Assembly (NCBI GenBank): GCA_021513695.1
Contig: CP084166.1
Location: 896,001-960,000 of the forward strand
Origin: Candidatus Heimdallarchaeum aukensis
GTDB taxonomy: Archaea; Asgardarchaeota; Heimdallarchaeia; Heimdallarchaeales; Heimdallarchaeaceae
Direction of reading: 5' to 3'
Length of the DNA: 64,000 nt
Shown: piece after piece, positions 38,988-60,857 of the stretch
How positions within the stretch are numbered: the first letter of the stretch is position 1
Layout of the letters: each line of letters opens with the position of its first letter
Translations under genes and position numbers: made by a program
The notes under the pieces: model-generated
Seen by the model: the letters and a program-made list of their open reading frames with translations, nothing else
Told to the model about the DNA's origin: nothing
Database searches by the model: none

Positions 38988-38989
38988 GA

Positions 38990-40800: not shown

Positions 40801-40832
40801 AGTAACTCACATGTAAATTTTGGTAACTAACT

Positions 40833-41894
40833 TTATTGCCATTCAAAGGGATCATTGATACCATAAATATTCATGAAGAGATTATTTGAAACAGTTTCAA
40901 AATTTATATCAGTAAATAAGTCTGGATAAGCCCACATCCCCATGCGTAGCACAATAAGTGGTGAAGCAGGAGACCATGTACTAAGTTTAGGGTATTGGAA
41001 GACCTTTTGATTTTGAACCGCACTGATACTTTGCCATTGTGTGTCATTCAATATGTCTTCAGGAGTATATTTTGCTGATCCCCAAATTACAATAACATCA
41101 GGATTCCATGCGATGATTTCTTCAATTGAAACCTCAGCATATTTTTCTTTAATATCGACAGCAGGATTGATACAACCGCATATGTGTATGTAAGTGTTTG
41201 TTACACCAAGCCCGCCTGTTACTTTTGTTTTGCTGCTCCATAAGTGAATCATTTTTAGTTTTGAATCTATTGTAAGATCATTTGTCTTTGAGGAAGGTAT
41301 ATCCATTGTTTTTTTCATATAAGTGATGATTTCACTAGCCCTGTCACTCACATTGAATATTTCACCTAAAAGCTCTATGCATTGATATAAATCATCTAAG
41401 TTGTCTAAACTAATCAGCACTACGGATATGTTTAATGCTTCTATTTGAGGAAGTATGTCTTGCATATGAGAACTTGCATAAGCTATAACAACTTCAGGAT
41501 CTTCCAGAACTAATTCCTCGATGTTCACACTAAATGAGGAACCTGGTGAGGGAACATCTGTAAGGTTGAAATTATATTGTTCATCGGCAGCTACTAAGAT
41601 TGGATTACTATAAGCGTATTTTGAGATACCAACGACTTTATCCCATTGTCCTAAGGCATATACGATATCGTAACTCTCTAAAACTACTACTCTGTTGACT
41701 TCATAGGGAATTGTTACATTGCGCCCTTCAAAATCAGTAATAACCTTATAATCTGGGAGACCAAGATTATGTGATGATAAGTAGTATAGACCAACTATAC
41801 CGCCAGTTACTATACTAGCTATAATTATTCCAATTATTATAGCTCTTGAATTTATTTTTCTCAACAAGGTCATTTTTGCTCCTATGTGCCCCAA
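40833..41894 (-). CDS. Substrate-binding protein of the corrinoid/siderophore/metal-chelate ABC importer (class III SBP, BtuF/FepB-like)
   Basis: 353 aa, N-terminal signal/TM anchor, operon position upstream of FecCD permease and ATPase. Confidence 0.65.
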   Translation of the reverse strand: MGHIGAKMTLLRKINSRAIIIGIIIASIVTGGIVGLYYLSSHNLGLPDYKVITDFEGRNVTIPYEVNRVVVLESYDIVYALGQWDKVVGISKYAYSNPILVAADEQYNFNLTDVPSPGSSFSVNIEELVLEDPEVVIAYASSHMQDILPQIEALNISVVLISLDNLDDLYQCIELLGEIFNVSDRASEIITYMKKTMDIPSSKTNDLTIDSKLKMIHLWSSKTKVTGGLGVTNTYIHICGCINPAVDIKEKYAEVSIEEIIAWNPDVIVIWGSAKYTPEDILNDTQWQSISAVQNQKVFQYPKLSTWSPASPLIVLRMGMWAYPDLFTDINFETVSNNLFMNIYGINDPFEWQ

Positions 41895-42341: not shown

Positions 42342-45300
42342 ATTTTCACACTACTTAGTTCAGCTTAAACCTCGTACTTGCTTGCAGAAGCACCTAGCAC
42401 GTAGTAATTTTCACACTACTTAGTTCAGCTTAAACCTTTCGATAATGATGGTGTTAGTGGTGAAGTGCAAAATTTTCACACTACTTAGTTCAGCTTAAAC
42501 AATCTATCAAGTGTCTCATTTTTTACGTTTCCTAGATTTTCACACTACTTAGTTCAGCTTAAACAATAACGTTTGAACATTGTTCTCGAATTCTTCATAA
42601 ATTTTCACACTACTTAGTTCAGCTTAAACAGTTGATGAAGGTGTGACAAAGTGTGACACTTCGATATTTTCACACTACTTAGTTCAGCTTAAACATTCTA
42701 CTTTTTTCTCAATCAATTTACAAGTTAGAGCGTCATTTTCACACTACTTAGTTCAGCTTAAACAGAACTAGGATCAGTCTCGGTCCATTCAGAAACTCGA
42801 TTTTCACACTACTTAGTTCAGCTTAAACTCCTAAAATAATAACTGATCCTAAGAATCCTGATAAGATTTTCACACTACTTAGTTCAGCTTAAACCCAGAG
42901 TGAGAACGGGGTTATAGGTCAATAATAAAGAAATTTTCACACTACTTAGTTCAGCTTAAACTTTGTTTTGATTTTTCTTTCTTTCAGGATAGCATCAATT
43001 TTCACACTACTTAGTTCAGCTTAAACAAATGGCTAAAAGAACCACAAGAACTTCAAGAAAATAATTTTCACACTACTTAGTTCAGCTTAAACTTTACATT
43101 TATATAACTTCCCCAGAAGATTATATATAATTTTCACACTACTTAGTTCAGCTTAAACCAGCAATGTTGGCACATCTCCCCACTCTACTTTCTCATTTTC
43201 ACACTACTTAGTTCAGCTTAAACATTACTCTTTTTTCTTTACAAAACATTTATATATTATATTTTCACACTACTTAGTTCAGCTTAAACGTTATATTAAG
43301 TGTTAAATAGTTCTCTTTTCCTTCTTATTTTCACACTACTTAGTTCAGCTTAAACGTAAAAAAATGAGTAATTCAGAAGAACATTTTCACACTACTTAGT
43401 TCAGCTTAAACTGAAAACCTTATAGGCTGGCGTGAATACGCAAACCTAATTTTCACACTACTTAGTTCAGCTTAAACACGTTTCCAAGTAAATCTGTTAC
43501 TATTTCAAATTTATTTTCACACTACTTAGTTCAGCTTAAACTGATTTACGTTACCCTCATGTTTGTTATGTTTATTTATTTTCACACTACTTAGTTCAGC
43601 TTAAACGAATTTACTTTACACAATGATCGTGCTGATACTGTTTTATTTTCACACTACTTAGTTCAGCTTAAACACATTGCTTGATATTGGAATTTTATAT
43701 CTTAATATATTTTCACACTACTTAGTTCAGCTTAAACCTGACTTTTTTGGAGAATTTGGTTTCGCTGATAGTAATTTTCACACTACTTAGTTCAGCTTAA
43801 ACTAGAAAATTGTATTCTTCAAACTATACGTATAGATATTCCATTTTCACACTACTTAGTTCAGCTTAAACCTTAAATTATCTTCAAACCAATCAGAATA
43901 ATAAAGTTCATATTTTCACACTACTTAGTTCAGCTTAAACATAAATATCGCTATTTCTCCTTTCTTAACTGTTCTTAATTTTCACACTACTTAGTTCAGC
44001 TTAAACCATAATCTATCATAAAAAAGTCTCCTATATCATAAGTATTTTCACACTACTTAGTTCAGCTTAAACACTATTTTTCCACCTTCTCTTTCTTCCC
44101 ATTCTCTCTTATTTTCACACTACTTAGTTCAGCTTAAACTTTGTACTTCACTGTGCTTAATATCTCTACTTATACTATTTTCACACTACTTAGTTCAGCT
44201 TAAACTTTATCACCCCTCATATATTTATTATACTTCCTAAAATTTTCACACTACTTAGTTCAGCTTAAACCGTACACCCATTCCTTAGGTGTCCAGTCTA
44301 ATACTTATTTTCACACTACTTAGTTCAGCTTAAACTCACCTATATATATGATGTTCTAACACATAAAAATCATTTTCACACTACTTAGTTCAGCTTAAAC
44401 CTGACTTTTTTGGAGAATTTGGTTTCGCTGATAGTAATTTTCACACTACTTAGTTCAGCTTAAACTAGAAAATTGTATTCTTCAAACTATACGTATAGAT
44501 ATTCCATTTTCACACTACTTAGTTCAGCTTAAACCTTAAATTATCTTCAAACCAATCAGAATAATAAAGTTCATATTTTCACACTACTTAGTTCAGCTTA
44601 AACATAAATATCGCTATTTCTCCTTTCTTAACTGTTCTTAATTTTCACACTACTTAGTTCAGCTTAAACCATAATCTATCATAAAAAAGTCTCCTATATC
44701 ATAAGTATTTTCACACTACTTAGTTCAGCTTAAACACTATTTTTCCACCTTCTCTTTCTTCCCATTCTCTCTTATTTTCACACTACTTAGTTCAGCTTAA
44801 ACTTTGTACTTCACTGTGCTTAATATCTCTACTTATACTATTTTCACACTACTTAGTTCAGCTTAAACTTTATCACCCCTCATATATTTATTATACTTCC
44901 TAAAATTTTCACACTACTTAGTTCAGCTTAAACCGTACACCCATTCCTTAGGTGTCCAGTCTAATACTTATTTTCACACTACTTAGTTCAGCTTAAACTC
45001 ACCTATATATATGATGTTCTAACACATAAAAATCATTTTCACACTACTTAGTTCAGCTTAAACCTCATAACAAATGGATAAAGACTATTGAAATCAAGAA
45101 TTTTCACACTACTTAGTTCAGCTTAAACCAATTATTATCGCAACAGCCATCTCAAGATCACCTTATTTTCACACTACTTAGTTCAGCTTAAACGTTTTTG
45201 AATAACAGTCTGTGAAGAGAGAGAAGCAAATTTTCACACTACTTAGTTCAGCTTAAACGTCTTATTTCGTTAAAATCTTCAACAATAGCTTGTTGATTTT

Positions 45301-48300
45301 CACACTACTTAGTTCAGCTTAAACACTTTAGACGTGAAAAATTGGTTAATGGTTTTAGGTGATTTTCACACTACTTAGTTCAGCTTAAACGTAAAGAGAA
45401 AAGAAGAAAGAAAAAGAACGATAAAAGAATTTTCACACTACTTAGTTCAGCTTAAACGAGATATTGCAACATTTTGCTACAAAAATATCTAAAAAATTTT
45501 CACACTACTTAGTTCAGCTTAAACTTTGAAGTATCTGTGATGTCTTTTGTGACTACTCCTGATTTTCACACTACTTAGTTCAGCTTAAACCTTACAGAGG
45601 GAGAATATGCGGGACAATATATTATTACATTTTCACACTACTTAGTTCAGCTTAAACATAGAAGAAGAGCTCATTACAACTTTCCTTTTCCGTGATTTTC
45701 ACACTACTTAGTTCAGCTTAAACAAGCGTCAGTAGCACCTACAAGCGGGACATTCACAAGATTTTCACACTACTTAGTTCAGCTTAAACTCTATTTTATA
45801 TACTTTCTCTAATTCTAAACTTCTACTATTTTCACACTACTTAGTTCAGCTTAAACAGTAGAAATGAAGGGGGGGTTAGGAGCTAGAAAAAATTTTCACA
45901 CTACTTAGTTCAGCTTAAACCAATTCTGTTAATTTGTTTATTTCTTCCCATCTTTCATTTTCACACTACTTAGTTCAGCTTAAACGATAAATGGTACAAT
46001 CGTTTGAACCCTTTTAGAAGAAATTTTCACACTACTTAGTTCAGCTTAAACAAGGTTATCGCCTTTACATTTAGGGTTCTCACAAGTAATTTTCACACTA
46101 CTTAGTTCAGCTTAAACTATTTATGTAAAAGTCCTCTTCATCTATTATTAAACTATTTTCACACTACTTAGTTCAGCTTAAACACTATAACTTTAAGCAC
46201 TTGTTTTACTATATCGAAAAATTTTCACACTACTTAGTTCAGCTTAAACAGTCCGTTCTCGTTTCTTATTTCTTCGTCATCGGTTCTAATTTTCACACTA
46301 CTTAGTTCAGCTTAAACATGATTTTGTATAGTTTCCTCTCTTTATAAATGAAAATTTTCACACTACTTAGTTCAGCTTAAACTCAGCGTTTTGTAGTTCT
46401 ATTTTTCGTAAGTCGTCATATTTTCACACTACTTAGTTCAGCTTAAACCATTTCTCCACCTCTTTTTCATTTCTACTTGTTCTAATTTTCACACTACTTA
46501 GTTCAGCTTAAACTTGCTCTCTAAATATATTGCATACATTCCTTTTCTGATTTTCACACTACTTAGTTCAGCTTAAACTGAACAAACACTCACAATCTTA
46601 TCTAATCTTTCAAACGTATTTTCACACTACTTAGTTCAGCTTAAACAAACTGAAGTCATGTCAAAGTTAGAAGCCCAACTATATTTTCACACTACTTAGT
46701 TCAGCTTAAACGAGCTTTTACTGAAGCAGAACTAAAAAGAAATACCCCAAATTTTCACACTACTTAGTTCAGCTTAAACCATTGAATTCCTCTTTCTTCC
46801 TCTGCACAATAGTGAATTTTCACACTACTTAGTTCAGCTTAAACACGGTGCTCTGAAATGATGGAGTTTGAACAAAAATATTTTCACACTACTTAGTTCA
46901 GCTTAAACGTACAATTATGTTAAATATAGAAGAATAAAAAGGAATTTTCACACTACTTAGTTCAGCTTAAACGATAAAAATGGTAGAAGAGCATAAGAAG
47001 AATGAGCTTAATTTTCACACTACTTAGTTCAGCTTAAACTCTATCCTCCTTTTTTTTGGTTTGCAGTTTATACAAGAATTTTCACACTACTTAGTTCAGC
47101 TTAAACTTCATAGAACTTGATGTTAGGGTTAGGAAAAACCTCATTTTCACACTACTTAGTTCAGCTTAAACTGTAGCTTTGAAAGTTTATCATAGTTATG
47201 TGAGAATTATTTTCACACTACTTAGTTCAGCTTAAACAGATGAAATTTCCGAATTAGTTACTTTATTTCCGTCTGATTTTCACACTACTTAGTTCAGCTT
47301 AAACATTGGAGCTCTTCCCTTGACAATACAAATATTACAAATTTTCACACTACTTAGTTCAGCTTAAACGAACGATTACAGTATAGAACAGACGAATATT
47401 ATTATATTTTCACACTACTTAGTTCAGCTTAAACATCAGCAACTCTTTGCTGGTTCTCAAGAGCTTTTTGATTTTCACACTACTTAGTTCAGCTTAAACG
47501 TGAAAAGTCTCTTGTGTAGGTATATCGTGCTGCGTATTTTCACACTACTTAGTTCAGCTTAAACAGGTTCTCACTTTGGACAAAAGAAGCAAGTTTAGAC
47601 GAATTTTCACACTACTTAGTTCAGCTTAAACTTTCTCCTGAAAGAAGATCGTATGGTAACGAATACGTATTTTCACACTACTTAGTTCAGCTTAAACTCT
47701 ACCACAATGAAGATCATGAGAAGAAACCCACACATTTTCACACTACTTAGTTCAGCTTAAACATTTTTTTCACCCATAATCATTTCCACCCCTCTTTGAT
47801 TTTCACACTACTTAGTTCAGCTTAAACTCAAGGTCAAAATGGGGAAAAAGGTCGAACTATGGTATTTTCACACTACTTAGTTCAGCTTAAACAACGCTTG
47901 TTTTGGGGTTTCACACCCCAAAATCTTATTTTCACACTACTTAGTTCAGCTTAAACTCTGCTTTATCTTCTTCTTTTTCACAATCTCTATGAATTTTCAC
48001 ACTACTTAGTTCAGCTTAAACTTTGCACCTATTATATTTTAAGAGTAAAGAATATAATTTTCACACTACTTAGTTCAGCTTAAACCAGAGAAAGACGCGG
48101 GTTCAATTTCGTATAAGTAAGTAATTTTCACACTACTTAGTTCAGCTTAAACTATCTTCTTTATCTCTTTTTCTACTAACTCATTCTTATTTTCACACTA
48201 CTTAGTTCAGCTTAAACTAGATAAAGGAAGTTTAGATAAAGCGATACAAGAATTGCTAAATTTTCACACTACTTAGTTCAGCTTAAACAAGCGAGTTCAG

Positions 48301-48420
48301 TATCTTCTTTTTCCTCATAGACCTTAATTTTCACACTACTTAGTTCAGCTTAAACATTTATTCCTGCTATACGCAATAGACTTGAAAACGTATTTTCACA
48401 CTACTTAGTTCAGCTTAAAC
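42342..48420 (-). CRISPR. CRISPR array 1: about 92 copies of the 29-bp repeat ATTTTCACACTACTTAGTTCAGCTTAAAC (+ strand) with 35-40 bp spacers; leader at the 48420 end, so it is transcribed on the - strand
   Basis: Perfect periodic repeat of about 66 bp seen directly; the transcribed orientation is GTTTAAGCTGAACTAAGTAGTGTGAAAAT, identical to array 2. Confidence 0.95.
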
Positions 48421-48535
48421 GAAGTTTATTTTCTTTTCTAGCTATATTTTTCTCTCGTTTTGTCACTCACCTTCCTGGTCGACCTCCAATAAGGTATTAA
48501 CTTTATAAATATTGACCAGATACATAAACGTTTAC
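48421..48535 (-). promoter_or_regulatory. Leader of CRISPR array 1 (about 115 bp conserved with the array 2 leader; contains a TTTATAAA TATA-like box and a GGTCGACC palindrome)
   Basis: GAAGTTTATTTTCTTTTCTAGCTATATTTTTCT...TTTGTCACTCACCTTCCTGGTCGACCTCCAATAA...CTTTATAAAT is about 90 percent identical to the reverse complement of 60858-60971. Confidence 0.6.
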
Positions 48536-48569
48536 CTTATAAACAATGACTAGTACCATTAAATTTGCT

Positions 48570-50075
48570 TTATTTTTTTGCTATTTTCTCTGCAATTACA
48601 GGATGTTTTTCGTTTACTGCATACCAGAATTTTGCCTTTCCTTTTAAATTTGGTTTTATTATTATCCATCCCTTTTTTTCCATATCTACTAGGATTCTTG
48701 GTTTATTCATTTTGAATTGATTTATGTTTATTTTTTTATGATCATGGTATTTATTTTCTTTTTGCATCCATTCATTTATTTTCCTGAAGCTCCCTGCAGC
48801 TAATCCACCTATCAAGATTGACCCATCCATACAGAGTTTGTATTCTTTTGGTTTTTCCAGTACTGACATGTATTTATCTATCATAAAGTCTAAAATTATT
48901 TCATGTTCTCCCTCTGGCCTTTCGAACATTTTTTCTTTTGTTCCTTCTTTAATTATTTTATTTTTTAGTTTGTCTAGTTGACTATTTTTTTCAAGAAGCA
49001 ACCTATTTTTTTCATGTGGGTCCCATAAATTTATTTTCTCAATTAATATTTGTTCTAAGTTTTGATACTCTCTTTCAATTACTAATTTTGTACTTATTTT
49101 CTTGAATATTTTTCTCTGGTAATTTTGTGGCAGGTAGTATGATCTTCTTCCTATAGAGTGATATAGAATTGGATTTAGGGTATTAACTATATAGTTTACT
49201 AGAGCTATTTTTTCTTCCATGTTTAGCTCCGAAAAGATATTTTCTTCTATTATTGATACTATTCTTTGTATTAGAGTTTTAATCATGAAAGCTGTTAGAA
49301 TAGCTTTTTTTACTCTCTTTTTGAATAATTCATTTTTCTTTTTGTAATGTACTATAGCATAAGTATCAATTCCGAGGGATAAAACGTCTATTTTTTCCTT
49401 TGAGCTATATATCTTTTCTATGTTTTTTTCTTCTAACTTTTGAAAATGAACACTAGGTAATTCAATTATTGAGATGACATTTGAAGATTCTAAATAAATA
49501 TTACTAAATTCTTTAAAGAATGCTCTAAGCAAACAAAATTTTACCTGTTCATTTTTCTTTTTTTTGCCTTTTTCATTTGTAAATATTTTTATTATTTCCC
49601 TTCGTAAATTTTCTAAACTCTCTTCTTCCAGAATTTTTTCACTTAAAATTACTTTCTTTTCTACTTCAGCTATTAATGATGGATAAATGTTTATCTTTTT
49701 TAATCCATTTACGATTTTAACTACTGTTCTTGGTTCATTCCAATAAACAGTTCTTGTTTCAATTGGAATAAGCGGTCTTAAAGGCACTCTTCTAAAAAAT
49801 AAATATTTTTTAGCGTAATAGTACAGATATGAATCATTAGTCAATTTCAGAAAAAGACTTGAGTAGTATGGAATGAAAATGTCGAACTTTTTTCTACCTT
49901 TTCTTATTACCATTTTTATTCTTTTTTTGAACTCTGTTTCTGATTTAAGGAAAGAGAGTTCTTTTCTAATCTTTTTTGAATAAAGGATTTCTGGAATGGC
50001 ATAAAACTGATGGAAAGAGATTTTTATTGTATTCATTTTATTCTCCCTAATACCATTTTTGAAGAGTAGTATCAT
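48570..50075 (-). CDS. Uncharacterised 501-aa Lys-rich protein encoded inside the CRISPR-cas locus (between the array 1 leader and cas6)
   Basis: Long ORF with coding periodicity; it overlaps the upstream ORF by 29 bp (operon); no recognisable catalytic motif. Confidence 0.5.
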   Translation of the reverse strand: MILLFKNGIRENKMNTIKISFHQFYAIPEILYSKKIRKELSFLKSETEFKKRIKMVIRKGRKKFDIFIPYYSSLFLKLTNDSYLYYYAKKYLFFRRVPLRPLIPIETRTVYWNEPRTVVKIVNGLKKINIYPSLIAEVEKKVILSEKILEEESLENLRREIIKIFTNEKGKKKKNEQVKFCLLRAFFKEFSNIYLESSNVISIIELPSVHFQKLEEKNIEKIYSSKEKIDVLSLGIDTYAIVHYKKKNELFKKRVKKAILTAFMIKTLIQRIVSIIEENIFSELNMEEKIALVNYIVNTLNPILYHSIGRRSYYLPQNYQRKIFKKISTKLVIEREYQNLEQILIEKINLWDPHEKNRLLLEKNSQLDKLKNKIIKEGTKEKMFERPEGEHEIILDFMIDKYMSVLEKPKEYKLCMDGSILIGGLAAGSFRKINEWMQKENKYHDHKKININQFKMNKPRILVDMEKKGWIIIKPNLKGKAKFWYAVNEKHPVIAEKIAKK

Positions 50076-51525
50076 ATCTTGAAGTTGGCAGATTTACTCT
50101 TTTAGTATACATAAAGCTGGTTATAAAAAAATAAGGTTCTTCTTCTTCAAAAATCGAAGAAAACAAATCTATGAAATTAATTACTAATTCATTGGGTATT
50201 CTTACTGTAACAATTAGTCCCTTTTCATCTGTTATTAAATTAGTAAACGGTTCAGAATAAACTTCTGGAAACAGAGATAATCTATCATGAATCTCTTTTT
50301 GATCCACTTTTTTCTTAAATATAATCATCACATCGTTAGTTCCAAAAATTGGTATTATATTTACTCTTTTTATGTATAGTTGTTCATTTGTGAAGTGTTT
50401 CAAATATTTTCTTATTGTGCTCTGTGAAATATTAGTTTCCTTCTCTATTCTACTTACAGTCAAATCTCTATTCTTAATTATATATTCAAGTATCTTAAGG
50501 CCAGGCTTAGTTAATTTTAATTCACTTTCTTTTGTGTCTTCGAATCTAGGTTTCAATTCATTCTTTGTTTTACTCTTATTATGAAGTGCAATTGCAATTT
50601 CGCTTATCGAATAATTCCAATTTTTGTTTTTATAATCATATTTTGAATAATCAAACGTTGTTATCTGTTCTTCTCTATGCAGAACTAAAATTTCATATTT
50701 TGTTATTTCTTTTTTCTTGATTGACAAGTCAAAAAATTCACTTATTCTCCTACATATCTCCTTCAACAAGGGCACTGGGAATGAGTAGTAGAGTAACAAT
50801 GCCTTGCATGATGTATTCAGTGTCATCGATTTTCTTAAGAACATTTTAGGGAAATTTTCTTTTTTATGTATTGAAGAGAGTTCATCAAATCCATAAACAA
50901 TCACAAGAAGCAAGACAAAGTTTGTCTTTTTCAAATTCAAACTTATTCCTTCATAGATTATTCCTTTATCAAAGAGTAATTTTTTTGTTCTTGTTATATT
51001 TCCTGCATCTTTATTCAAAATTTTACTTAATTCTTTGGTTGAAGTAATTTGATATTTGATCATTGCTTGTAGTAATGAAAACTCTGCTTTTGTTAGACTA
51101 GGCTTGATTCTACTCCTTAATGTAAAAAAGAATCTCAGGAAAAGAGACCAATTTTCTAATAGTATTTTATTTTTTTTATATTCTAAAATAGAAAGTAATT
51201 TATTAGCTGTTTCTTCATCTTGAAGAAACTGTTTATATGACGAGAATATTACATATTTCAAATCATTATATTCTTTCTCTGTACTATATTCAGACCAAAA
51301 ATTCAACCATTTTTCTAATTGTTGTCTAGTTATGCTTTTTTTTCCTTTATTTTTCTGAAAATAAAGTATTCTATATATTTTAAAACATATTAAATCCCAA
51401 GCAGGTGTTTTTGGAACTATATTTAGTTCTTCAACTTTTTTTTTAAAAAATTTAAAATGTGATCCTAAGATTTCTCTCCCTTTCTCTAAAATTACTTCTC
51501 TTTCTTTTATTTGAGAATATTTCAT
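50047..51525 (-). CDS. Uncharacterised 492-aa protein with at least two winged-HTH modules and an Lrp/AsnC-like C-terminal arrangement (putative DNA-binding regulator) inside the CRISPR-cas locus
   Basis: HTH-like segments AEFSLLQAMIKYQITSTKELSKILNKDAGNITRTKKLLFDKGII and LKILEYIIKNRDLTVSRIEKETNISQSTIRKYLKHF, the latter followed by a beta-rich region as in AsnC-type regulators. Confidence 0.5.
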   Translation of the reverse strand: MKYSQIKEREVILEKGREILGSHFKFFKKKVEELNIVPKTPAWDLICFKIYRILYFQKNKGKKSITRQQLEKWLNFWSEYSTEKEYNDLKYVIFSSYKQFLQDEETANKLLSILEYKKNKILLENWSLFLRFFFTLRSRIKPSLTKAEFSLLQAMIKYQITSTKELSKILNKDAGNITRTKKLLFDKGIIYEGISLNLKKTNFVLLLVIVYGFDELSSIHKKENFPKMFLRKSMTLNTSCKALLLYYSFPVPLLKEICRRISEFFDLSIKKKEITKYEILVLHREEQITTFDYSKYDYKNKNWNYSISEIAIALHNKSKTKNELKPRFEDTKESELKLTKPGLKILEYIIKNRDLTVSRIEKETNISQSTIRKYLKHFTNEQLYIKRVNIIPIFGTNDVMIIFKKKVDQKEIHDRLSLFPEVYSEPFTNLITDEKGLIVTVRIPNELVINFIDLFSSIFEEEEPYFFITSFMYTKRVNLPTSRYDTTLQKWY

Positions 51526-51724
51526 CCAAGTTTAAATTTATTGTCAGTTTAAATTTTTTTTGTAATACTGACCTTGAACTATTGTCCAAAATAGACAAAG
51601 CTTATCCTTTTAGTTTTATTCTATTTCAAGCCTTCTAAGTAGATAGTTTTTAAATTACTTCACAGACATTTTCGATTTTTTGTTGTCCAGAGATGTATTG
51701 TCACAATTAAAAAGAGGTGACAAA

Positions 51725-51799
51725 ATGAAAAAGGATTATTATCTTCCTCCTCCTGAAGATGATGAACCAAATGATCCAGAACCATTTCCTTTTCCTTAA
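51725..51799 (+). CDS. Candidate small ORF (24 aa, MKKDYYLPPPEDDEPNDPEPFPFP) with strong SD-like GAGGTGA 5 nt upstream
   Basis: ATG at 51725 preceded by AAGAGGTGA; acidic Pro-rich peptide; followed by a hairpin and T-run. Speculative. Confidence 0.2.
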   Translation: MKKDYYLPPPEDDEPNDPEPFPFP

Positions 51800-51817
51800 A
51801 AGGGATAAAGAAGGTAT

Positions 51818-51885
51818 TAAAACCTTCACGTTCTTCTACTAACAACCTAAGAACGTCCAATTATACAATTGGACTTCTTTTTTTA
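51818..51885 (+). terminator. Two stem-loops (ACGTTCTT-N13-AAGAACGT and CCAATT-ATAC-AATTGG) followed by a T-rich run; terminator-like, upstream of cas6
   Basis: Inverted repeats and a T-tract (CTTCTTTTTTTATTTTTTTC) read directly from the sequence. Confidence 0.3.
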
Positions 51886-52022
51886 TTTTTTTCTATCAAA
51901 CTACTTATCATACTAGAATTTTTGTTGGTTTACTTTAATTTAAAAAAAGCTCAAATTCTAATAATTCTTTTTTTAAACTCTTAAAACTCTATTAAAAGTT
52001 TTTATAGTTTGTTGAGATAAAA

Positions 52023-52745
52023 TTGTTGATGAGGATTCTTATTTCTTTTAAGCCTAAATTTGATGTTTCAGAGGATGCCATAGTAAAACATGATATTCAA
52101 GGATTTATTTATAATCTAATCAAGTACAAAGATACTAAAGTTCTTTTAGATCATGATAAACATCATTTCAAATTTTTTTGTTTTAGCGATATTTTTCCTC
52201 AAGGTGATTTTAAAAAAGGAGAGACAAAAAATCTGTTAATTAGTTCTCCTACAAAAGAGCTAATAAATTTAATTGATGATAATCTTCCTCTTGAGAAATC
52301 CTATAGATTAGCTGGATTAACCATCGAAGTTATATCCAAAAAAACTTTTAACTTTCCCACAAAAAACAACTTTATTTCTGGAAGTCCTATAGTTTTATAC
52401 AAAGATAATACAAAGAATGAATATTTTAGCTTTAAGAAACACAAAAGTCTTAATTTCTTTCTCAATAGATTACAAGAAAATGCTGTGAAAAAGTATCAAA
52501 TTTACTATAACGATCCTGAATTTCAATTGTCTGGAAAGATTTTTGATACAATTGAATTTAGAAAGGAGGTTGCAGTTCACAACAGGAAACAAGGAAATGA
52601 ATTTATTCACATTGGCACTCTTTGGAAAAAATTAGAAAAAGAATACATAAAGAAAGAAGAAAGAAGGTTTTATCATTTTATCATGGAAAGTGGTCTTGGC
52701 GAAAAAAATAGTATGGGTTTTGGTTTTTTAAATCCTATTCAATAA
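52023..52745 (+). CDS. cas6: Cas6 (crRNA endoribonuclease), type I-B
   Basis: 240 aa; C-terminal glycine-rich loop GLGEKNSMGFGFL; first gene of the cas operon. Confidence 0.85.
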   Translation: MLMRILISFKPKFDVSEDAIVKHDIQGFIYNLIKYKDTKVLLDHDKHHFKFFCFSDIFPQGDFKKGETKNLLISSPTKELINLIDDNLPLEKSYRLAGLTIEVISKKTFNFPTKNNFISGSPIVLYKDNTKNEYFSFKKHKSLNFFLNRLQENAVKKYQIYYNDPEFQLSGKIFDTIEFRKEVAVHNRKQGNEFIHIGTLWKKLEKEYIKKEERRFYHFIMESGLGEKNSMGFGFLNPIQ

Positions 52746-52850
52746 ATTGTATTTTTTTGTTTAAATTTTACAATTAATTTTTGAAAAAACAACCTTTAAA
52801 ATATTTTTTTCTTTCTGTTTTACCAATAAAACTTAATTATTGGTGTTCCA

Positions 52851-54863
52851 TTGATACAAGCAGTTAAACAATTAGGAAAAAAAATACGAGAGATTTATCC
52901 TGAAAAATATGCAGATTTTGTCGATGTCTTTATTGCAGATGTAAAAACAGATTTATTTTTGATAGAATTAGAGAAAAAAGAAAACGATTTTCAATATAAT
53001 AAAATTGTTTGGATGGAACCAAAACCTGAGATAATTCCTAAATTACTTTATAAAGACTTTGGGAGAAATATCAAAATTAGACCTGCGCCTGTAGCTAAAG
53101 TAGGTTATTTCCAGACCAAATCAAAAGATGGTAAAATTTCAGAAAAAGAGCTCGAGAATCACAAGAAGAAAATAAAAAGCGAACTAGACGCTTCCATAAT
53201 TAAATGGTTTTCTCAAGAAATTGATAGAAGAAAAGAAGGTAGTGAAAAAAGAATTTTCTTGGAAAATATAAAAAAAGGAATACTCAATTCATTAGATAAT
53301 ATAATTACAGATATTAAAGAACAGATGGATTTTTCAGGTCAAAATAAGAAAAAAAATGAAAAGTGTATAATAACACTACAATTTTTGGAAGGTGGTAAAG
53401 AATATTACCTTCGTGACTTTGATATTTTTTCTAAAGCTTTTTTAGATAAAAACTTGGAACGTTACGCAAATAAATGGGGAATAACTTCTAAAGGAGAAGA
53501 TGCTGTTTGTTCATTATGTCATGAGAAAAAAGAAGAAGTCTTTGGTTGTGCCTCAGACATTTTTAGCTGGTACACTCTTGATAAAAGAGGATTTGCACCA
53601 TTCTTTGATCAGACTTTAGGATGGAAACTATTTCCTGTCTGTAAAGAATGTATTATTGATCTAGAGATAGGCAAAAAATTTGTTTTAAACAATCTACGTC
53701 TTAAGTTTAATGATTTTACTAACTTTTTCTTAATTCCAAAGCTTCTAAATCCTAAAATTATCGATAAGGGTATTTTGAGAAGATTTGAGCTTTTCAAGAG
53801 TATTTCAGTTGAAAATAATGAACTATTGGAAAAATATAGGAAAAAAGAAGAGATACTTAAGAGAGCTACAAAAAGCACAATTGAAATGATCGGAGAACAA
53901 GAAAAAGATAACAATTTTACGCAGAATATGATTTTCCTGAATTTAATTTTCTTTGATGATGATGGAAAATCTATAAAGATTCTACGTAGTATTGAAGATG
54001 TTCTTCCTTCCAGGTTTGTTCAGATAACTGATGAGCTATATAAAATAAATAAGGATGAAACTTTGGACAGCTATAAAATTTATTTGCAATTAGTTTTAAA
54101 CATCTTATATCTGGAAAAAGAAAGTAAACGCGGTTCTACAATTGATAAAAAGTATTTATCTACAATCGATTCTCTTCTTAAAGATGTACCTTTAGATTAT
54201 GATGTTCTTATAAAGGATATCGCTTCAAGTTGTCAAGAGATAGTAAAGGAAAGTTATCTTTCTGATAACAATCTAAAAAAAATAGCTAAAAAAATTACAA
54301 ATATTGACAAAGGTAATAATGACGTAGAATTTGGCAACTCTTATGAGTTAATAATTAATGCTTATTTAAAATATTTAGTTTTATTAAAAAGATTAAATCT
54401 AATCCAAAAATGGAGGGTATCAAAAATGATTGATAAAACAGGACTTGAAGAAGAAATATCAGATAATAAGAGTCGACTAAGCATCTTAAATTCAATATTT
54501 AATGCTTATTCTGACTTTTTTGATCAACCCATTATTCGTGCTGTCTTTGTATTAGGCATTTTGACTAAGCTATTGATGAATATTCAGTATCGCAATCTCA
54601 ATGCTACGCCTTTTTTCAACAGGTTAAATGGGTTAAAATTGAATAAAAGAATAATAATCAAACTTGTTTCCGAAGTAAAAGGAAAACTAAGTGAATACTC
54701 TATAGCTTATGTTGATTTAGAAGAAGAGATGGCTAAATACTTCTTAGAAGCTGGTCACAATTGGCTGGTTTCTGATGACGAACTTAGTTTCTTCTTCGCT
54801 TTGGGAATGAATAACGCGAGTAAATTTAAATCAGAAACAAAAGAAGGTGAAGAAAATGAGTGA
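52851..54863 (+). CDS. cas8b: Cas8b (Csh1/Cst1 large subunit), type I-B
   Basis: 670-aa protein between cas6 and cas7, with Cys-containing region CSLCHEKKEEVFGC...CKEC; its position and size define the I-B large subunit. Confidence 0.75.
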   Translation: MIQAVKQLGKKIREIYPEKYADFVDVFIADVKTDLFLIELEKKENDFQYNKIVWMEPKPEIIPKLLYKDFGRNIKIRPAPVAKVGYFQTKSKDGKISEKELENHKKKIKSELDASIIKWFSQEIDRRKEGSEKRIFLENIKKGILNSLDNIITDIKEQMDFSGQNKKKNEKCIITLQFLEGGKEYYLRDFDIFSKAFLDKNLERYANKWGITSKGEDAVCSLCHEKKEEVFGCASDIFSWYTLDKRGFAPFFDQTLGWKLFPVCKECIIDLEIGKKFVLNNLRLKFNDFTNFFLIPKLLNPKIIDKGILRRFELFKSISVENNELLEKYRKKEEILKRATKSTIEMIGEQEKDNNFTQNMIFLNLIFFDDDGKSIKILRSIEDVLPSRFVQITDELYKINKDETLDSYKIYLQLVLNILYLEKESKRGSTIDKKYLSTIDSLLKDVPLDYDVLIKDIASSCQEIVKESYLSDNNLKKIAKKITNIDKGNNDVEFGNSYELIINAYLKYLVLLKRLNLIQKWRVSKMIDKTGLEEEISDNKSRLSILNSIFNAYSDFFDQPIIRAVFVLGILTKLLMNIQYRNLNATPFFNRLNGLKLNKRIIIKLVSEVKGKLSEYSIAYVDLEEEMAKYFLEAGHNWLVSDDELSFFFALGMNNASKFKSETKEGEENE

Positions 54864-55785
54864 AATAATAAAAAATAGGTCTGAAATAGTTTTTTTGTAT
54901 GATGTTAGAGACGGTAATCCAAATGGTGACCCTGCTGATGGGAACAAGCCTAGGATTGATGAAACCAGTGGTATCAACATAGTAACTGATGTTCGACTAA
55001 AGAGAACAATAAGAGACTATATAAACAAGGTTAAAGGCCATGAAATTTTTGTTAAAAAGATAGAAGACTTAGAAGGGATAATCCAAACTTCTAAACAACG
55101 AGCACAAGATTTTCAGAATGATCCAGATAAGATTCTTTCTGAATGCGTGGATGTCAGGATGTTTGGGGGAACTATACCAATAAAAATTTCTGATAAGAAA
55201 GATGGTAGCATTACTTTTACTGGTCCCGTTCAATTCTCTATGGGGAGATCTCTTCACAGAGTCGAGTTAAAACATGTTAAAGGAACAGGAGCTTTTGCTT
55301 CTTCAGAAGGAAAGAAACAACAGACTTTTCGAGAAGAGTGGATACTACCTTATTCACTAATAAGCTTTTATGGTGTAATAAATGAGAATGGTGCAGAAGA
55401 TACACAGTTAACCGAAGAGGATGTTAAGCTTCTTGTAGAAAGTATCTGGAATGGGACTAATGATTTGTTAACAAGAAGTAAGATGGTTCATAGATCTAGA
55501 GTTCTTTTACAAATTATTTACCAAGAGAAAAACTTCCATGTCGGAGAGCTTGACAAAAAGATTAAGATGAAGGCTAAAGTTGAAGATGAAAAAATTAGAG
55601 GTACGGATGACTACACTCTTGAATTTGATAATTTTGTAGAAGCGATCAAAAATAACAAAGAAAAAGTAAAAATTATTCGTTACAAAGTAGATGACAGTAT
55701 TAATCTTGAATTTAATGGTGACAAAAAGACTATAGAAGAGATTCTAAAACTTACAGAATGTGAATTGGAAGAGCTGAAATTTTAA
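54847..55785 (+). CDS. cas7: Cas7 (Csh2/DevR-type backbone subunit), type I-B
   Basis: N-terminal FLYDVRDGNPNGDPADGN signature of Cas7 family proteins. Confidence 0.9.
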   Translation: MKKMSEIIKNRSEIVFLYDVRDGNPNGDPADGNKPRIDETSGINIVTDVRLKRTIRDYINKVKGHEIFVKKIEDLEGIIQTSKQRAQDFQNDPDKILSECVDVRMFGGTIPIKISDKKDGSITFTGPVQFSMGRSLHRVELKHVKGTGAFASSEGKKQQTFREEWILPYSLISFYGVINENGAEDTQLTEEDVKLLVESIWNGTNDLLTRSKMVHRSRVLLQIIYQEKNFHVGELDKKIKMKAKVEDEKIRGTDDYTLEFDNFVEAIKNNKEKVKIIRYKVDDSINLEFNGDKKTIEEILKLTECELEELKF

Positions 55786-55791
55786 TAATAG

Positions 55792-56553
55792 GTGAGACTA
55801 ATGCTAAAACAGGAAGCTGAAGTAAGAGAAGTTTTAGTTTTCGATATTTGGGGTGATTTTGCTCATTTTAAGAAAAACTATGCTACAACTTCAGCTCTTA
55901 CATACAATTTTCCTCCTCGAAATACTATTGCAGGAATAATTGGAGCAATTTTAGGTTTAAAGAGGGCAGATTTTCCTGAAAAATTGTCTCCTGAAAAGAG
56001 TTACATTGGTGTTTCAATACTCTCTCCAATAATGAAAAAAACTATTACAATGAATCTTATTCACACTAAACCTTCTGAATCACTTATATTCAAAAATAAT
56101 TTTGGTTATTTCAAAAAGCACACACAGATTCCTTTTCAATTTTTATCTAATATCTCATTTAGGGTGTATTTTTCAACTGACGATGAGGAAATGTTTTCAC
56201 AACTATATACATATCTTAAAAACCATAAGTCTCATTATACAGTTTCGTTAGGTTTGAGCAATCTACTTTGTAACTTTAAGTTAATAGGAAAAAAAACAAT
56301 AAGAAAAAAAGAAGTAGCTAACAAAGAAGTAGAGGTTTTAACAGTAATTCCGATGAACAAAGTCAAAGAAGTAAATGTGTTTAAAAATCCTAAAATGAAT
56401 ATCGAGAATTTACCCAGATTTATCGATAGTTCAAGAACAGTTCATGAATACCAGGAAGTTCTATCAAGCATGGATCCAGAAAAACCTCTTTTTGTAGTCC
56501 CTAGAGATACCTTATGGGAGATTGAAAATGACAAATTCATCAGTTTCCTCTGA
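55792..56553 (+). CDS. cas5: Cas5 (type I-B)
   Basis: 253 aa; N-terminal VLVFDIWGDFAHFKK...PPRNTIAGIIGAILG typical of Cas5. Confidence 0.85.
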   Translation: MRLMLKQEAEVREVLVFDIWGDFAHFKKNYATTSALTYNFPPRNTIAGIIGAILGLKRADFPEKLSPEKSYIGVSILSPIMKKTITMNLIHTKPSESLIFKNNFGYFKKHTQIPFQFLSNISFRVYFSTDDEEMFSQLYTYLKNHKSHYTVSLGLSNLLCNFKLIGKKTIRKKEVANKEVEVLTVIPMNKVKEVNVFKNPKMNIENLPRFIDSSRTVHEYQEVLSSMDPEKPLFVVPRDTLWEIENDKFISFL

Positions 56554-58990
56554 AAATCAGATAAACATTTTTTCTCACCCTAATAAAAATATTTTAGAAC
56601 ATTTAAGTGAGACAGAAAGAGAAATTCTAAATATCCTTGAAAAACTACAGCCCAATTTTTCAATCAAAAAAAACATTATTATCGAAATCGCTAGAATTTT
56701 AGCTTTAACACATGATATTGGAAAATGCACAATCTTTTTTCAAGAATATCTTCATTCAAACGAAGAAAATAACTTCAAAAAATTGGGAGAATATCAAAGT
56801 TCAAAACTTCACCACCATGGACTAATCTCTGCAGTTTTTACCTATTATACACTAAAGAAACTTTTAAATTCAAATAATGAGCAGTTCTATGACCTGAATA
56901 GTGGATATAAAGACCTATTACCTCATATAGGCTTTTTAACAACAAAAAAACATCATGGTAATTTAGGAAATTTTTATGATGAGATTATTATAAACAGAAC
57001 AAGTGAAGAAAAGATTAGACAGCAACTAGAAAATTTCCATCCCCAATTCGAAAATGTTGTCGAATTCATAAGAAATAAAATTAATATAACAATTTCATTT
57101 AATGAATTTTCAGAATCCTTTGGAGATTTAATTGATGAATTAGCTTTCAGTGATGAACTATTATTGAACTATTATGAAAATAGTAGAGATTGTGAACTTT
57201 ATCTATTTACTTTATTTTTACATTCAATCTTAACAGATGCAGATAAAACTTCTGCTATTGGTGTCTCTAAGCCTATTCTTCCATTTATTTCTTCTAACAA
57301 AATTATCAAAAACAGGAAAAAAATAATCCAGAAAAAAGGAAAAAAGACATATTTAGATAACTTAAGAGAGAATATTTACAAAGAAGTAATTGCAAAGATA
57401 GAAAAAACACCTTTAGATAACAAAATATTTACATTAACAGCTCCTACAGGTTCAGGAAAAACTCTCACAGTTTTTGAAGCAGCATTTAGATTGAAAGATA
57501 AAATTTTAAGGAGAACTAATATAGAAATGAAAATTATTTATTGCCTTCCATTTCTCAGCATCATTGATCAAAATGCTCACATTATTAACCAACTGCTAGA
57601 TCCTGACTCAGTTAAGTTTCTTCCTTCAACTCAACTACTAATTCATCATTACTTGGCAGAAGTTCAATACAGCTCTTATGAAGAAGATTATACCTTTGAT
57701 GAAAGTAGATTCCTAATTGAGGATTGGCATTCTTCAGTTATTATTACAACCTTTATTCAGCTTTTTCATAGTATTTTTACCAATAGAAATAGCAAGATAA
57801 GGAAACATCACAATATACAAAATTCTATCATAATACTTGATGAAGTTCAAAACATTCCTCATAAGTATTGGTTATTGATCAGGGAAGTTTTTCAAAGATT
57901 ATCAGAGATCGAGAATGTTTATATCATTTTTACAACAGCCACACAGCCTAAAATTTTTAGTTCAGAAGAGAAAGTTGTTGAATTACTTGAAAATAAGGAA
58001 AAATACTTTGAACAGTTAAGTAGAATTACTTTAGAACCAAAAATTGATAACAATATCACACTCAACGAGTTTATTTTAGAAATTAATGAGAAACTGCAAA
58101 AGAACAGTGACAAGGATATTCTAATTGTTGCGAATACAATCCGAGAAGCTCAAGAGATTTTTGACAGTATTAATTTTAAAAAAGATCATGATAAGTTATT
58201 TTTCCTTTCAAGTCAAATAATCCCTAGAAAGAGGAAAGAAAGAATTGAAGAAATAAAGAGAAAATTAGAAAAAGAAAAAGATAAAAGAGAGAGTAATGAA
58301 AAACGAATTATTTTAGTAACTACCCAATTAATTGAAGCAGGAGTAGATATCGATTTTGATATTGTAATAAGAGATTTAGGACCAATAGATTCTATAAATC
58401 AAGTAGCAGGAAGATGTAACAGAAACGGAGAAGAAGAAAAGGGAAAAACAATTGTTTATTCAGTCATTGACCAAAAAACAAAAAGATTATTTGCTTCATA
58501 CATTTATGACGGATTTATTTTAAGTAAAACGAAGGATGTTCTAAAAAACAAAAGAGTGATAGAAGAACAAGAATTCCTCAAAATCATTGACGATTATTAT
58601 TTAAGCATCGAAAAGACAGGGGACACAATAACCTCCACTAATATACTAGACTCTATCTTTAATTTAGAGTTTGATGAAATAGGTAAATTTAGCCTGATAG
58701 AAGAAAGAGCTGATCAAGTTCCTGTTTTTATTGAGATAGATAAAAAGGCAAAGGAAATTTGGGCAGAATATTTGGAAATATGGAATATTAAAGATTGGAA
58801 GAAAAGAAATGAGAAATTTATAAAAATCAAAAATGATCTCTATAGTAACTTAATTAACGTAGACAAGAAAAAAATCAAAACAATTGAGCAAATAAAGGGT
58901 TATTATTATATCGATTTTCAAAATGCTAGGAACTACTACGACAATGAAAAAGGTTTCATTGGGAAAGAAAAAGATGTTATTTTATTATAA
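56522..58990 (+). CDS. cas3: Cas3 (HD nuclease + DEAD/DEAH-box helicase fusion)
   Basis: HD-domain motifs LTHDIGK and HHHG; helicase motif I LTAPTGSGKT and motif II IILDEVQ; 822 aa. Confidence 0.9.
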   Translation: MKMTNSSVSSENQINIFSHPNKNILEHLSETEREILNILEKLQPNFSIKKNIIIEIARILALTHDIGKCTIFFQEYLHSNEENNFKKLGEYQSSKLHHHGLISAVFTYYTLKKLLNSNNEQFYDLNSGYKDLLPHIGFLTTKKHHGNLGNFYDEIIINRTSEEKIRQQLENFHPQFENVVEFIRNKINITISFNEFSESFGDLIDELAFSDELLLNYYENSRDCELYLFTLFLHSILTDADKTSAIGVSKPILPFISSNKIIKNRKKIIQKKGKKTYLDNLRENIYKEVIAKIEKTPLDNKIFTLTAPTGSGKTLTVFEAAFRLKDKILRRTNIEMKIIYCLPFLSIIDQNAHIINQLLDPDSVKFLPSTQLLIHHYLAEVQYSSYEEDYTFDESRFLIEDWHSSVIITTFIQLFHSIFTNRNSKIRKHHNIQNSIIILDEVQNIPHKYWLLIREVFQRLSEIENVYIIFTTATQPKIFSSEEKVVELLENKEKYFEQLSRITLEPKIDNNITLNEFILEINEKLQKNSDKDILIVANTIREAQEIFDSINFKKDHDKLFFLSSQIIPRKRKERIEEIKRKLEKEKDKRESNEKRIILVTTQLIEAGVDIDFDIVIRDLGPIDSINQVAGRCNRNGEEEKGKTIVYSVIDQKTKRLFASYIYDGFILSKTKDVLKNKRVIEEQEFLKIIDDYYLSIEKTGDTITSTNILDSIFNLEFDEIGKFSLIEERADQVPVFIEIDKKAKEIWAEYLEIWNIKDWKKRNEKFIKIKNDLYSNLINVDKKKIKTIEQIKGYYYIDFQNARNYYDNEKGFIGKEKDVILL

Positions 58991-59002
58991 CGAAATGATG
59001 GA

Positions 59003-59031
59003 GTTCAAGCTAAACTAAGTAGTATGAAAAT
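59003..59031 (+). repeat. Orphan degenerate CRISPR repeat (26/29 identity to the array repeat) between cas3 and cas4
   Basis: GTTCAAGCTAAACTAAGTAGTATGAAAAT compared with GTTTAAGCTGAACTAAGTAGTGTGAAAAT; same orientation as array 2. Confidence 0.6.
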
Positions 59032-59073
59032 TAGAGGTAGAAGTAATGGTATTAAATTCTTGGTGAAATTGTA

Positions 59074-59604
59074 ATGGTGGAGTTAAATCATATTAGCATT
59101 AAGAATACTGATTTTGCAGTAACTGGAGTAATGGTTCAATATTTATTTTCATGTAAAAGAGAATTGTGGTTTTTTACCAAAAAAATTGATTTCAACAAAG
59201 AGGATCAGAACATTCAAATTGGCAAAATAATACATGAAACAAGCTATAAACGAAATAAAAAAGAGTTTGACTTAGGTTTTGTAAAATTTGACTTAATTGA
59301 AACAAAAAACAGGATAATAATTTCTGAAATAAAAAAATCTTCAAAACTTTTGGAACCTGCAAAAATGCAACTTTTGTATTATGTTTACATTTTAAGTAAA
59401 ATAACTGAAAAAGAAGTAGAAGGAGAAATTAGAATTCCAAAAGAGAGAAAAAAAGTAAAGATTCAATTGCAAAACGAAGAAGAAAAATTAATTCAAAAAG
59501 CTTTGAGAGAGATTAAAGAAATTTCCTTACTGGAAAGACCTCCCAAAGCAGAAAAAAAATTTTATTGTAAGAATTGCGCTTATTACATTTTTTGCTGGGT
59601 TTGA
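59074..59604 (+). CDS. cas4: Cas4 (RecB-like nuclease with C-terminal Fe-S cysteine cluster)
   Basis: 176 aa; N-terminal Cys (FSCKREL) plus C-terminal CKNCAYYIFC; position between cas3 and cas1. Confidence 0.85.
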   Translation: MVELNHISIKNTDFAVTGVMVQYLFSCKRELWFFTKKIDFNKEDQNIQIGKIIHETSYKRNKKEFDLGFVKFDLIETKNRIIISEIKKSSKLLEPAKMQLLYYVYILSKITEKEVEGEIRIPKERKKVKIQLQNEEEKLIQKALREIKEISLLERPPKAEKKFYCKNCAYYIFCWV

Positions 59605-60591: not shown

Positions 60592-60857
60592 AGATATACG
60601 TGATAATCGTTTATGACGTGGGAGAAGAAAGAGTAAATAGAATACATAAATTCTTGAAAGCATATTTAACATGGACACAAAATTCAGTATTTGAAGGAAA
60701 AATAACAAAAGCAACATTAGCTCAAATAAAAACAGGAATAAAAAGCATAATAAAAAAAGAAGTCGATTCAATAAAAATATTCAAAATAAAAGGAGAACAA
60801 TGGATGAATATTGAAATAATGGGAGTAGAAAAAAATAAGTTTCAGAATATAATTTAG
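60582..60857 (+). CDS. cas2: Cas2
   Basis: 91 aa; N-terminal MVVEIYVIIVYDVGEERVNRIHKFL typical of Cas2; overlaps the cas1 stop. Confidence 0.8.
   Translation: MVVEIYVIIVYDVGEERVNRIHKFLKAYLTWTQNSVFEGKITKATLAQIKTGIKSIIKKEVDSIKIFKIKGEQWMNIEIMGVEKNKFQNII

Follow-up and report, generated by a model that had tools for sequence, protein, structure and literature searches.

What do two genes do that separate a CRISPR array from the cas operon of an Asgard archaeon? The genes, here called A and B, lie at 50047–51525 and 48570–50036, both on the minus strand, in a 64,000-nucleotide (nt) stretch of Candidatus Heimdallarchaeum aukensis contig CP084166.1 (GenBank assembly GCA_021513695.1, positions 896,001 to 960,000; hereafter the window, whose numbering we use unless another locus is named). 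A preliminary description of this DNA had proposed them as a candidate novel CRISPR-associated module, regulatory or adaptation-ancillary, or else as cargo such as a plasmid Rep/partition pair. Here we find that A and B, together with a divergently encoded micro-gene, make up a three-part cassette around one divergent promoter region, and that this cassette sits near-exclusively at the 5′ end of effector operons belonging to three CRISPR types. Structure models predict DNA-binding folds in both A and B. The reading we favour, to which we give about an even chance, is that the cassette would provide portable, autoregulated, DNA-binding control of the adjacent CRISPR operon or array and is specific to Heimdallarchaeia.

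An exhaustive HMMER scan for relatives of B across 1.84 billion cluster representatives returned 25 proteins, mostly full length (approximately 485 amino acids (aa)) and 24–35% identical. All 12 with a named source came from Heimdallarchaeaceae or ‘Heimdallarchaeota’ metagenome-assembled genomes (MAGs), and one MAG, ACTSP3, carries at least four paralogs. Word-indexed searches with A, B or a B profile recovered the same-species copy only, the Lys-rich composition swamping the prefilter. No relative was found when the GTDB species representative genomes were scanned with B; the nearest Cas6 recovered from these representatives, by a scan sensitive to close relatives only, has 43% identity and belongs to a Methanobacteriaceae MAG (L002) lacking the cassette. 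A profile of the A family likewise had no relatives among metagenome contigs and IMG/VR viral contigs.

To define the genomic context, we surveyed the DNA around 11 B members, each from a different 50%-identity cluster. The cassette is divergent from cas6 of a type I-B operon in the window (and its counterpart L001) and in L003/L004, and divergent from cas10d of a type I-D operon in L005/L006, L010/L011 and L012. L009 is flanked on one side by a III-A csm operon with csx1/csm6 and on the other by a co-directional cas8b-cas7-cas5-cas3 operon, an arrangement repeated in L013. L014 lies immediately upstream of, and co-directional with, a I-B-like cas7b-cas8b-cas7b-cas5 operon, and L015 adjoins cas6 and a CARF protein. 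The remaining two are a B-only cassette adjoining a mad3-like defence ABC ATPase (L008) and a copy surrounded by metabolic genes with no cas gene within 10 kb (L007). Altogether 9 of the 11 members are cas-adjacent (I-B, I-D, III-A/I-B hybrid, I-B-like and cas6 with CARF), for which the binomial probability is below 1e-7, assuming that even 10% of the genome counts as cas-adjacent. Recurrence next to cas operons was the check that the preliminary description had named for its module proposal, and the homologs are not confined to plasmid or other non-CRISPR settings, the finding that it had named as contrary. By its own check, then, the proposal of a candidate novel CRISPR-associated module is supported.

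In a neighbour-joining tree, B forms three clades (I-B, I-D and III-A/I-B), and the cas-less L007 copy is nested within that of I-D. This division by CRISPR type argues for long-term, type-specific linkage rather than chance residence in defence islands. In the divergent loci (window, L003, L005, L010 and L012), the cassette and the cas operon share an intergenic region of approximately 200–650 base pairs (bp). A adjoins B in 7 of 11 loci and lies inverted downstream of B in L012; of the seven loci with A, all adjoin B, six adjoin cas genes and none adjoins nir or ahb genes. An array directly follows the cassette in the window, L001, L003/L004 and L012, and none was seen in the retrieved DNA of L005, L010, L009 and L014, where the contigs are short.

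Alignment of the intergenic regions upstream of A across loci revealed the third conserved component, which the preliminary description lacked: a micro-open reading frame (micro-ORF) at 51725–51799 on the plus strand, with hairpins downstream. It encodes MKKDYYLPPPEDDEPNDPEPFPFP followed by a stop codon (24 aa, isoelectric point (pI) 4.0), is preceded by a strong Shine–Dalgarno (SD) sequence, GAGGTGA, at 51714–51720, and runs divergently from A-B in the same direction as cas6, 224 nt upstream of it. The micro-ORF is present in 10 of the 11 diverged loci (the exception being L015), including the non-cas L007 and the loci listed as lacking A (L008, L009, L012 and L013), and in all ten an SD of the form (G)AGGTG stands 7–9 nt upstream of the start. 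The peptides, 14–24 aa long and acidic (pI approximately 4), share the C-terminus P-[NDE]-D-P-[DE]-P-[FWYV]-P-(x)-(P/Q), to which L007 is the loosest fit. Among loci the codons of this core vary mostly synonymously (CCA/CCT/CCC/CCG, GAT/GAC), indicating that the micro-ORF is translated and under purifying selection. In 6 of the 10 loci (the I-B and I-D loci and L007), the neighbouring operon is read in the same direction as the micro-ORF and begins 150–405 nt downstream of it.

Past the stop codon follows a first hairpin at 51810–51827 (plus strand; GAAGGT-ATTAAA-ACCTTC), for which the family consensus is GAGGAG-(A/T-rich loop)-CTCCTC. Nine of the 10 micro-ORF loci have a hairpin of this GGAG/CTCC type within 8–14 nt of the stop codon, and its arms can still pair where they differ among loci: AAGG/CCTT in the window, GGAGTTTC/GAAACTCC in L009 and GGAGC/GCTCC in L012. 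A second hairpin, GTCCAATT-ATAC-AATTGGAC at 51855–51895 (plus strand), is followed by an oligo-T tract, and a second hairpin with a T-rich run occupies the equivalent place in most other loci; this element probably either terminates the micro-ORF transcript or acts as an attenuator before cas6. A bacterial promoter scan was uninformative for an archaeon, and only its terminator-like matches were used.

The same promoter region carries an operator-like palindrome, TTGTCCAAAATAGACAA, at 51582–51598, 57 bp upstream of the A start codon. The window has only this one such site, against 0.5 expected by chance, and the weight of the palindrome derives from the recurrence of its position: in six loci, B-only loci included, the stretch from the micro-ORF to the A or B start contains a palindrome of approximately 17–22 bp. 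The palindromes are perfect in L008 (TAACAAGAAA-T-TTTCTTGTTA), L010 (ATCATGTAA-TT-TTACATGAT), L013 (TATCTTCTA-N4-TAGAAGATA) and L014 (ATCTCCTAG-TG-CTAGGAGAT). L003, the closest I-B relative, has TTGTCT-N6-AGACAA and shares TTGTC/GACAA half-sites with the window, and the other four are unrelated in sequence. The possibility that the leaders or the cas6 promoter have the operator motif of the window too was considered and rejected, the window palindrome being a single site. A further inverted repeat, TTGTCAC-N12-GTGACAA at 51698–51723 (plus strand), overlaps the micro-ORF SD with its 3′ arm and may mask the SD in the RNA or provide a second site for protein binding; SD-overlapping inverted repeats also occur in L010 (8330–8372) and L007 (8330–8366).

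Protein A (492 aa) is identical to UJG41602.1 of Ca. H. aukensis, encoded on a 3,081,793-bp contig, for which the existing annotation is only ‘winged helix-turn-helix domain-containing protein’. Its AlphaFold model (predicted local distance difference test (pLDDT) 83, predicted template modelling (pTM) score 0.79) comprises an N-terminal helical domain (residues 1–137) followed by two modules, each consisting of a winged helix-turn-helix (wHTH) and a beta-alpha-beta-beta-alpha-beta fold, that is, Lrp/AsnC-like wHTH plus RAM, at approximately 146–291 and 340–476. The multiple wHTH/AsnC-like modules originally noted in this protein are thus two by Pfam, profile and model. The Pfam matches cover the wHTH only, at 139–191 (weaker matches to HVO_A0114 and MarR) and 338–387 (HTH_24 at 343–381, 27.9 bits against a cutoff of 21.9); Pfam AsnC_trans_reg did not match A, though the model shows the RAM-type fold twice. 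A profile of 12 family members matched whole archaeal Lrp/AsnC regulators twice, at approximately 134–268 and 334–473, and aligned residues 11–150 of 2cyy to A 336–473 at a marginal E value of 1.4e-3. We interpret the modelled A as a single-chain tandem Lrp/AsnC pseudo-dimer with a family-specific N-terminal domain. The best fold match is NirDL (PDB 4czc), at 11% identity, with a tandem Lrp-like fold in both. Matches of A to the PADLOC Csa3/CasR/CARF3 models are restricted to the wHTH part of those models (for example, 133–173 of 194), the Csa3/CasR models reaching the second wHTH of A; NCBIfam cas_HTH scored 10 bits against a cutoff of 60, PHROGs matches were at the wHTH level only, and profile scans detected no CARF domain, or equivalent sensor, ahead of the wHTH. 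A is basic (pI 9.5, 13% Lys).

Protein B was modelled with confidence (pLDDT 86, pTM 0.85) as an alpha/beta region (1–230), a helical domain (236–400) and a C-terminal winged helix (414–487). It is Lys-rich, as first described (15.6% Lys, pI 9.75). Neither the single sequence, nor a 19-member profile, nor each member taken separately matched anything in Pfam, NCBIfam, PADLOC, PHROGs or PDB sequences, so that, in agreement with the preliminary description, no core or accessory Cas family could be assigned to the pair, A having generic wHTH matches only and B none. The C-terminal winged helix, of the ORC/Cdc6/MarR type, is the sole part of B with a known match; against viral structures (BFVD, Foldseek) the best E value for the B model was 0.1, and the first 400 residues have no recognisable relative in the sequence libraries and viral structures searched. 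Invariant across the family are R87, L121, E192, R241, Y292, Y306, R308, W423 and N475, with a near-invariant YQR motif around Y306/R308; they form no obvious catalytic set. No AAA+ ATPase or Walker A/B motif was found in B, and no nuclease, NTPase, protease or toxin signature in any library scanned with A and B. A is not a relative of B (hhalign probability 0.3%), and the two combined have three winged-helix domains in the models.

The two genes lie, as proposed, between the array 1 leader and the start of cas6 (52023) and are both transcribed towards the leader. The preliminary description had delimited their ORFs correctly (minus strand, 48570–50075, 501 aa, and 50047–51525, 492 aa) and had concluded that they overlap by 29 bp. 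The overlap does not stand. All 24 of 24 B homologs from the HMMER search begin aligning at residue 14 or later of the 501-aa ORF, a GGAG precedes the ATG at 50036 at 6-nt spacing, and the gene calls of L001, a 3.7-kb Joint Genome Institute (JGI) contig of the same locus from a close strain (93–99% identity to the window), leave 9 nt between A and B. On this evidence B begins at ATG 50036 and encodes 488 aa, and the overlap is a longest-ORF artefact, with 10 nt from the A stop to the predicted B start. In the other loci, A and B overlap by up to 4 bp or stand up to 10 nt apart, and such short junctions indicate an operon in which the two genes are tightly, presumably translationally, coupled.

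Divergent from A-B runs a complete type I-B operon (52023–60857, plus strand), cas6-cas8b(TM1802)-cas7-cas5-cas3-cas4-cas1-cas2. Arrays flank the locus on both sides and have a 29-nt repeat in common: array 1 (42342–48420, minus strand; 93 repeats, GTTTAAGCTGAACTAAGTAGTGTGAAAAT in minus-strand reading) and array 2 (60972–63950, plus strand; at least 46 repeats). The array 1 leader (48421–48537, minus strand; approximately 117 bp) starts 32 bp past the B stop codon and is conserved with the array 2 leader (60855–60971) over approximately 117 bp, including the TATA-like ATTTATAAAG. No oligo-T of five or more residues occurs from the B stop to the first array 1 repeat, so A-B transcripts could, as had been suggested, read through into the array. 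The interval from array 1 to cas6 has no repeat-like (cr-like) element at up to 9 mismatches, and no Rfam family matched anywhere in the 64-kb window.

Of the two roles originally considered, a regulatory module is better supported than an adaptation-ancillary one, on the basis only of domain content and gene position. In the mechanism that we propose, A and/or B would bind the palindrome of their own locus, and the bound proteins would set transcription of the A-B operon, of the micro-gene, and of the adjacent cas operon and/or the array after B. A signal would be received by the RAM domains of A or by the N-terminal domain of B. If the micro-ORF encodes a leader peptide, ribosome occupancy on it would determine formation of the hairpin/U-tract terminator upstream of the cas operon.

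Several observations weigh against such control. The window palindrome is not repeated in the leaders or near the cas6 promoter, which weakens the case for direct control of cas or array promoters, and the best fold match of modelled A, NirDL, is an enzyme rather than a regulator. The 400-residue N-terminal part of B, which has no recognisable function, is big for a mere co-regulator. Two of the 11 loci, L007 and L008, are not beside cas genes, and the cassette is accordingly not strictly CRISPR-dependent. In L008, L009 and L013 the micro-ORF faces a convergent gene, and a leader-peptide role for a downstream operon is excluded there.

Portable regulator cassettes upstream of immune operons include CapH/CapP and CapW/BrxR. 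The two-gene CapK/CapS cassettes similarly lie upstream of diverse immune operons (PMC13373217). Like regulators of this type, the Heimdallarchaeia cassette comprises few genes, includes a DNA-binding component and is encoded where several unrelated immune operons begin (I-B, I-D, III-A/I-B and one mad3-like defence locus), often divergently, with candidate binding sites in the shared promoter. It differs from them in having no kinship in sequence or fold, an archaeal host, two proteins of approximately 490 aa and an extra micro-peptide gene, and no kinase, protease or WYL sensor domain is recognisable in it.

In archaeal CRISPR loci, the wHTH proteins Csa3/CasR and Cbp1 control cas, adaptation or array transcription. 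The similarity of A and B to Csa3/CasR is confined to the wHTH, the CARF domain being absent from both, and general scans turned up no similarity to Cbp1, at which no search was aimed. Lrp/AsnC proteins (feast/famine regulatory proteins (FFRP); PH1519/FL11, LrpA, ST1022) are single modules of approximately 150 aa that form homodimers or octamers, whereas A, with 492 aa, two fused modules and a 137-residue N-terminal domain, has a derived architecture, is obligatorily paired with B and retains marginal sequence similarity (E approximately 1e-3). The siroheme decarboxylases NirDL and AhbA-AhbB are heme d1/heme biosynthesis enzymes encoded in nir/ahb clusters; A is set apart from them by gene context, being cas-linked, and has an extra N-terminal domain at 11% identity. 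The resemblance of B to Orc1/Cdc6, ORC2 and Sir3 is limited to the C-terminal winged helix at the domain level.

For the micro-peptide, two roles may be considered. It may bind the basic proteins A and B as a partner or ligand, which fits the strict conservation of its core and its presence where nothing lies downstream; by analogy, it may instead act as a leader peptide prone to stalling. PPP, DP and Pro-stop motifs are translated slowly, and we know of no experimentally established archaeal case of leader-peptide termination coupling. In bacteria, EF-P couples translation to transcription termination (PMC5021804) and Pro-Pro pausing occurs in leader peptides (PMC8129111). The micro-ORF resembles Pro-rich leader or arrest peptides in being a short, SD-driven ORF with PPP, DP and PP-stop motifs followed by hairpins and a U-tract, and is unlike them in that nothing lies downstream in 3 of 10 loci and in that the core is stricter than stalling alone needs. 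A bolder reading, possible but doubtful, is a three-component CRISPR sensor in which the acidic Pro/Asp micro-protein or arrest peptide would report the translation or infection state and A and B would read that signal. If so, each CRISPR type would keep its own co-evolving copy, and the cassette would represent a new CRISPR-ancillary class, possibly the first archaeal example of an immune operon under peptide- or translation-coupled control.

The absence of cas genes from L007 and the non-CRISPR mad3-like ABC ATPase beside L008 would also suit an independent immune or abortive-infection system that merely co-resides in defence islands, the N-terminal domain of B acting as effector and A with the peptide as regulator or antidote. 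A large conserved B domain of unmatched fold with invariant R/E/R/Y residues would agree with this, and a small acidic peptide near basic proteins recalls antitoxin-like control. We nevertheless regard it as unlikely: random island neighbourhood would not predict B subfamilies that follow CRISPR type, the orientation is fixed at the effector operon 5′ end, the nuclease, NTPase, protease and toxin signatures mentioned above appear in no library scanned, and PADLOC has no model for the cassette. Somewhat less probable is an architectural factor for the array or for adaptation, for which IHF in types I-E/I-F and Cbp1 in Sulfolobales are precedents. A and B would then bind the leader or repeat and direct spacer integration or transcription of CRISPR RNA precursors (pre-crRNA). 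Three winged-helix domains in A and B, the location between cas operon and array in the window, L001, L003 and L012, the 32 bp from the end of B to the leader and the missing terminator between B and the array speak for it. However, array 2 has the same leader and no copy of the cassette beside it within the window, no motif is common to the promoter palindrome and the leaders, the cassette also occurs away from any CRISPR locus (L007), and the retrieved, short contigs of L005, L010, L009 and L014 contain no array.

The micro-peptide itself could be the centre of the system, as the substrate or ligand of A and B, whose wHTH domains would recognise or modify it in the manner of the recognition elements for ribosomally synthesised and post-translationally modified peptides (RiPPs), with the CRISPR linkage secondary. 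Its strictly conserved C-terminal core, variable N-terminus and constant location beside B are compatible with that, and the invariant aromatic and Arg residues of B could grip an acidic Pro-rich peptide; we judge it very unlikely, given that modifying-enzyme, protease and transporter domains are missing, that matches to RiPP enzymes are weak and at the wHTH level only, and that the CRISPR-type-specific phylogeny is left unexplained. The preliminary option of a Rep/partition pair, or another mobile-element or plasmid-remnant cargo inserted beside the array, has become barely credible. Heimdallarchaeum CRISPR loci are reported to be mobile and variable (PMC8813620), and there are several paralogs per genome. 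Yet tblastn detected no relative of A or B in 72,556 plasmids and none of B in 50,697 phage genomes, IMG/VR gave none for A and BFVD folds none for B, neither integrase nor flanking repeats accompany the pair, and library scans found no Rep or ParA/ParB signature in either protein; paralogs only 24–35% identical are ancient rather than recently transposed.

With regard to the preferred reading of portable regulatory control, an ancillary or regulatory immune module is familiar in kind, and its composition (a tandem-Lrp protein, an unmatched fold joined to a winged helix, and a Pro/Asp micro-protein) is new and restricted to Heimdallarchaeia. Asgard archaea are the closest prokaryotic relatives of eukaryotes; to our knowledge only a handful of archaeal CRISPR-Cas regulators, such as Csa3 and Cbp1, have been described, and none for Asgard archaea. 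The components are not represented as families in Pfam, NCBIfam, PADLOC or PHROGs, and our literature search found no published description of the cassette. The genome of H. aukensis is one of two circularised Asgard genomes reported by Wu et al. in 2022, where seven CRISPR-Cas loci are catalogued and the A-B gene pair goes unmentioned; the pair is also unmentioned for HeimM1, a mobile element adjoining a Cas operon that was described as a CcmA efflux-pump island (PMC8813620). The set of CRISPR-linked genes gains two new protein families, of which one has an N-terminal fold without a match, and a strongly conserved archaeal micro-protein whose role is directly testable. The cassette (micro-gene, A, B and a defined 500-bp control region) is compact and easy to synthesise, and offers a concrete handle on how Heimdallarchaeia switch immunity on.

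Other loci show further variation in the families. In L009, B is on the cas10 side of the III-A operon, past csx1/csm6, and an A paralog (83–649, minus strand) occupies the opposite end, where it diverges from cas6; in the III-A/I-B clade the effector operon separates A from B. In L008 (3613–9618), the B-only cassette stands beside a 1,420-aa protein with no PADLOC match and the mad3-like ABC ATPase (PADLOC E value 4e-50), and may mark a non-CRISPR defence system that recruited the same cassette. A solo A-family paralog lies just downstream of the I-D-linked A-B pair in L005 (12665–14113) and shares a 90%-identity cluster with H. aukensis UJG41612.1, from beyond the end of the window and only 10 numbers from the accession of A; the I-B and I-D loci may therefore adjoin each other in a single super-locus containing three A and two B paralogs. 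Relative to the window, L001 is 99% identical over the first half of the locus and only 94% over the second. Its A lacks 90 bp (30 aa; window 50116–50207) in frame in the second RAM-like domain, and its B lacks 11 aa in frame (B alignment columns 146–156).

Elsewhere in the window, array 1 contains identical multi-spacer blocks at 43774–43940 and 44437–44603, approximately 663 bp apart, which indicates internal duplication of several repeat-spacer units, and only 114 bp separate cas2 from the start of array 2. Abutting array 1, at 33095–41894 on the minus strand, lie genes for a CobN/Mg-chelatase large subunit (1,300 aa) and a ChlI/VWA-type subunit and a FecCD-type ABC importer operon. Upstream of the CRISPR region, the plus strand carries a TnpB-like ORF with a Cas12f1-like TNB domain (25666–27126, 486 aa) and a small HTH transposase-like ORF (32336–32764, HTH_32/HTH_28).

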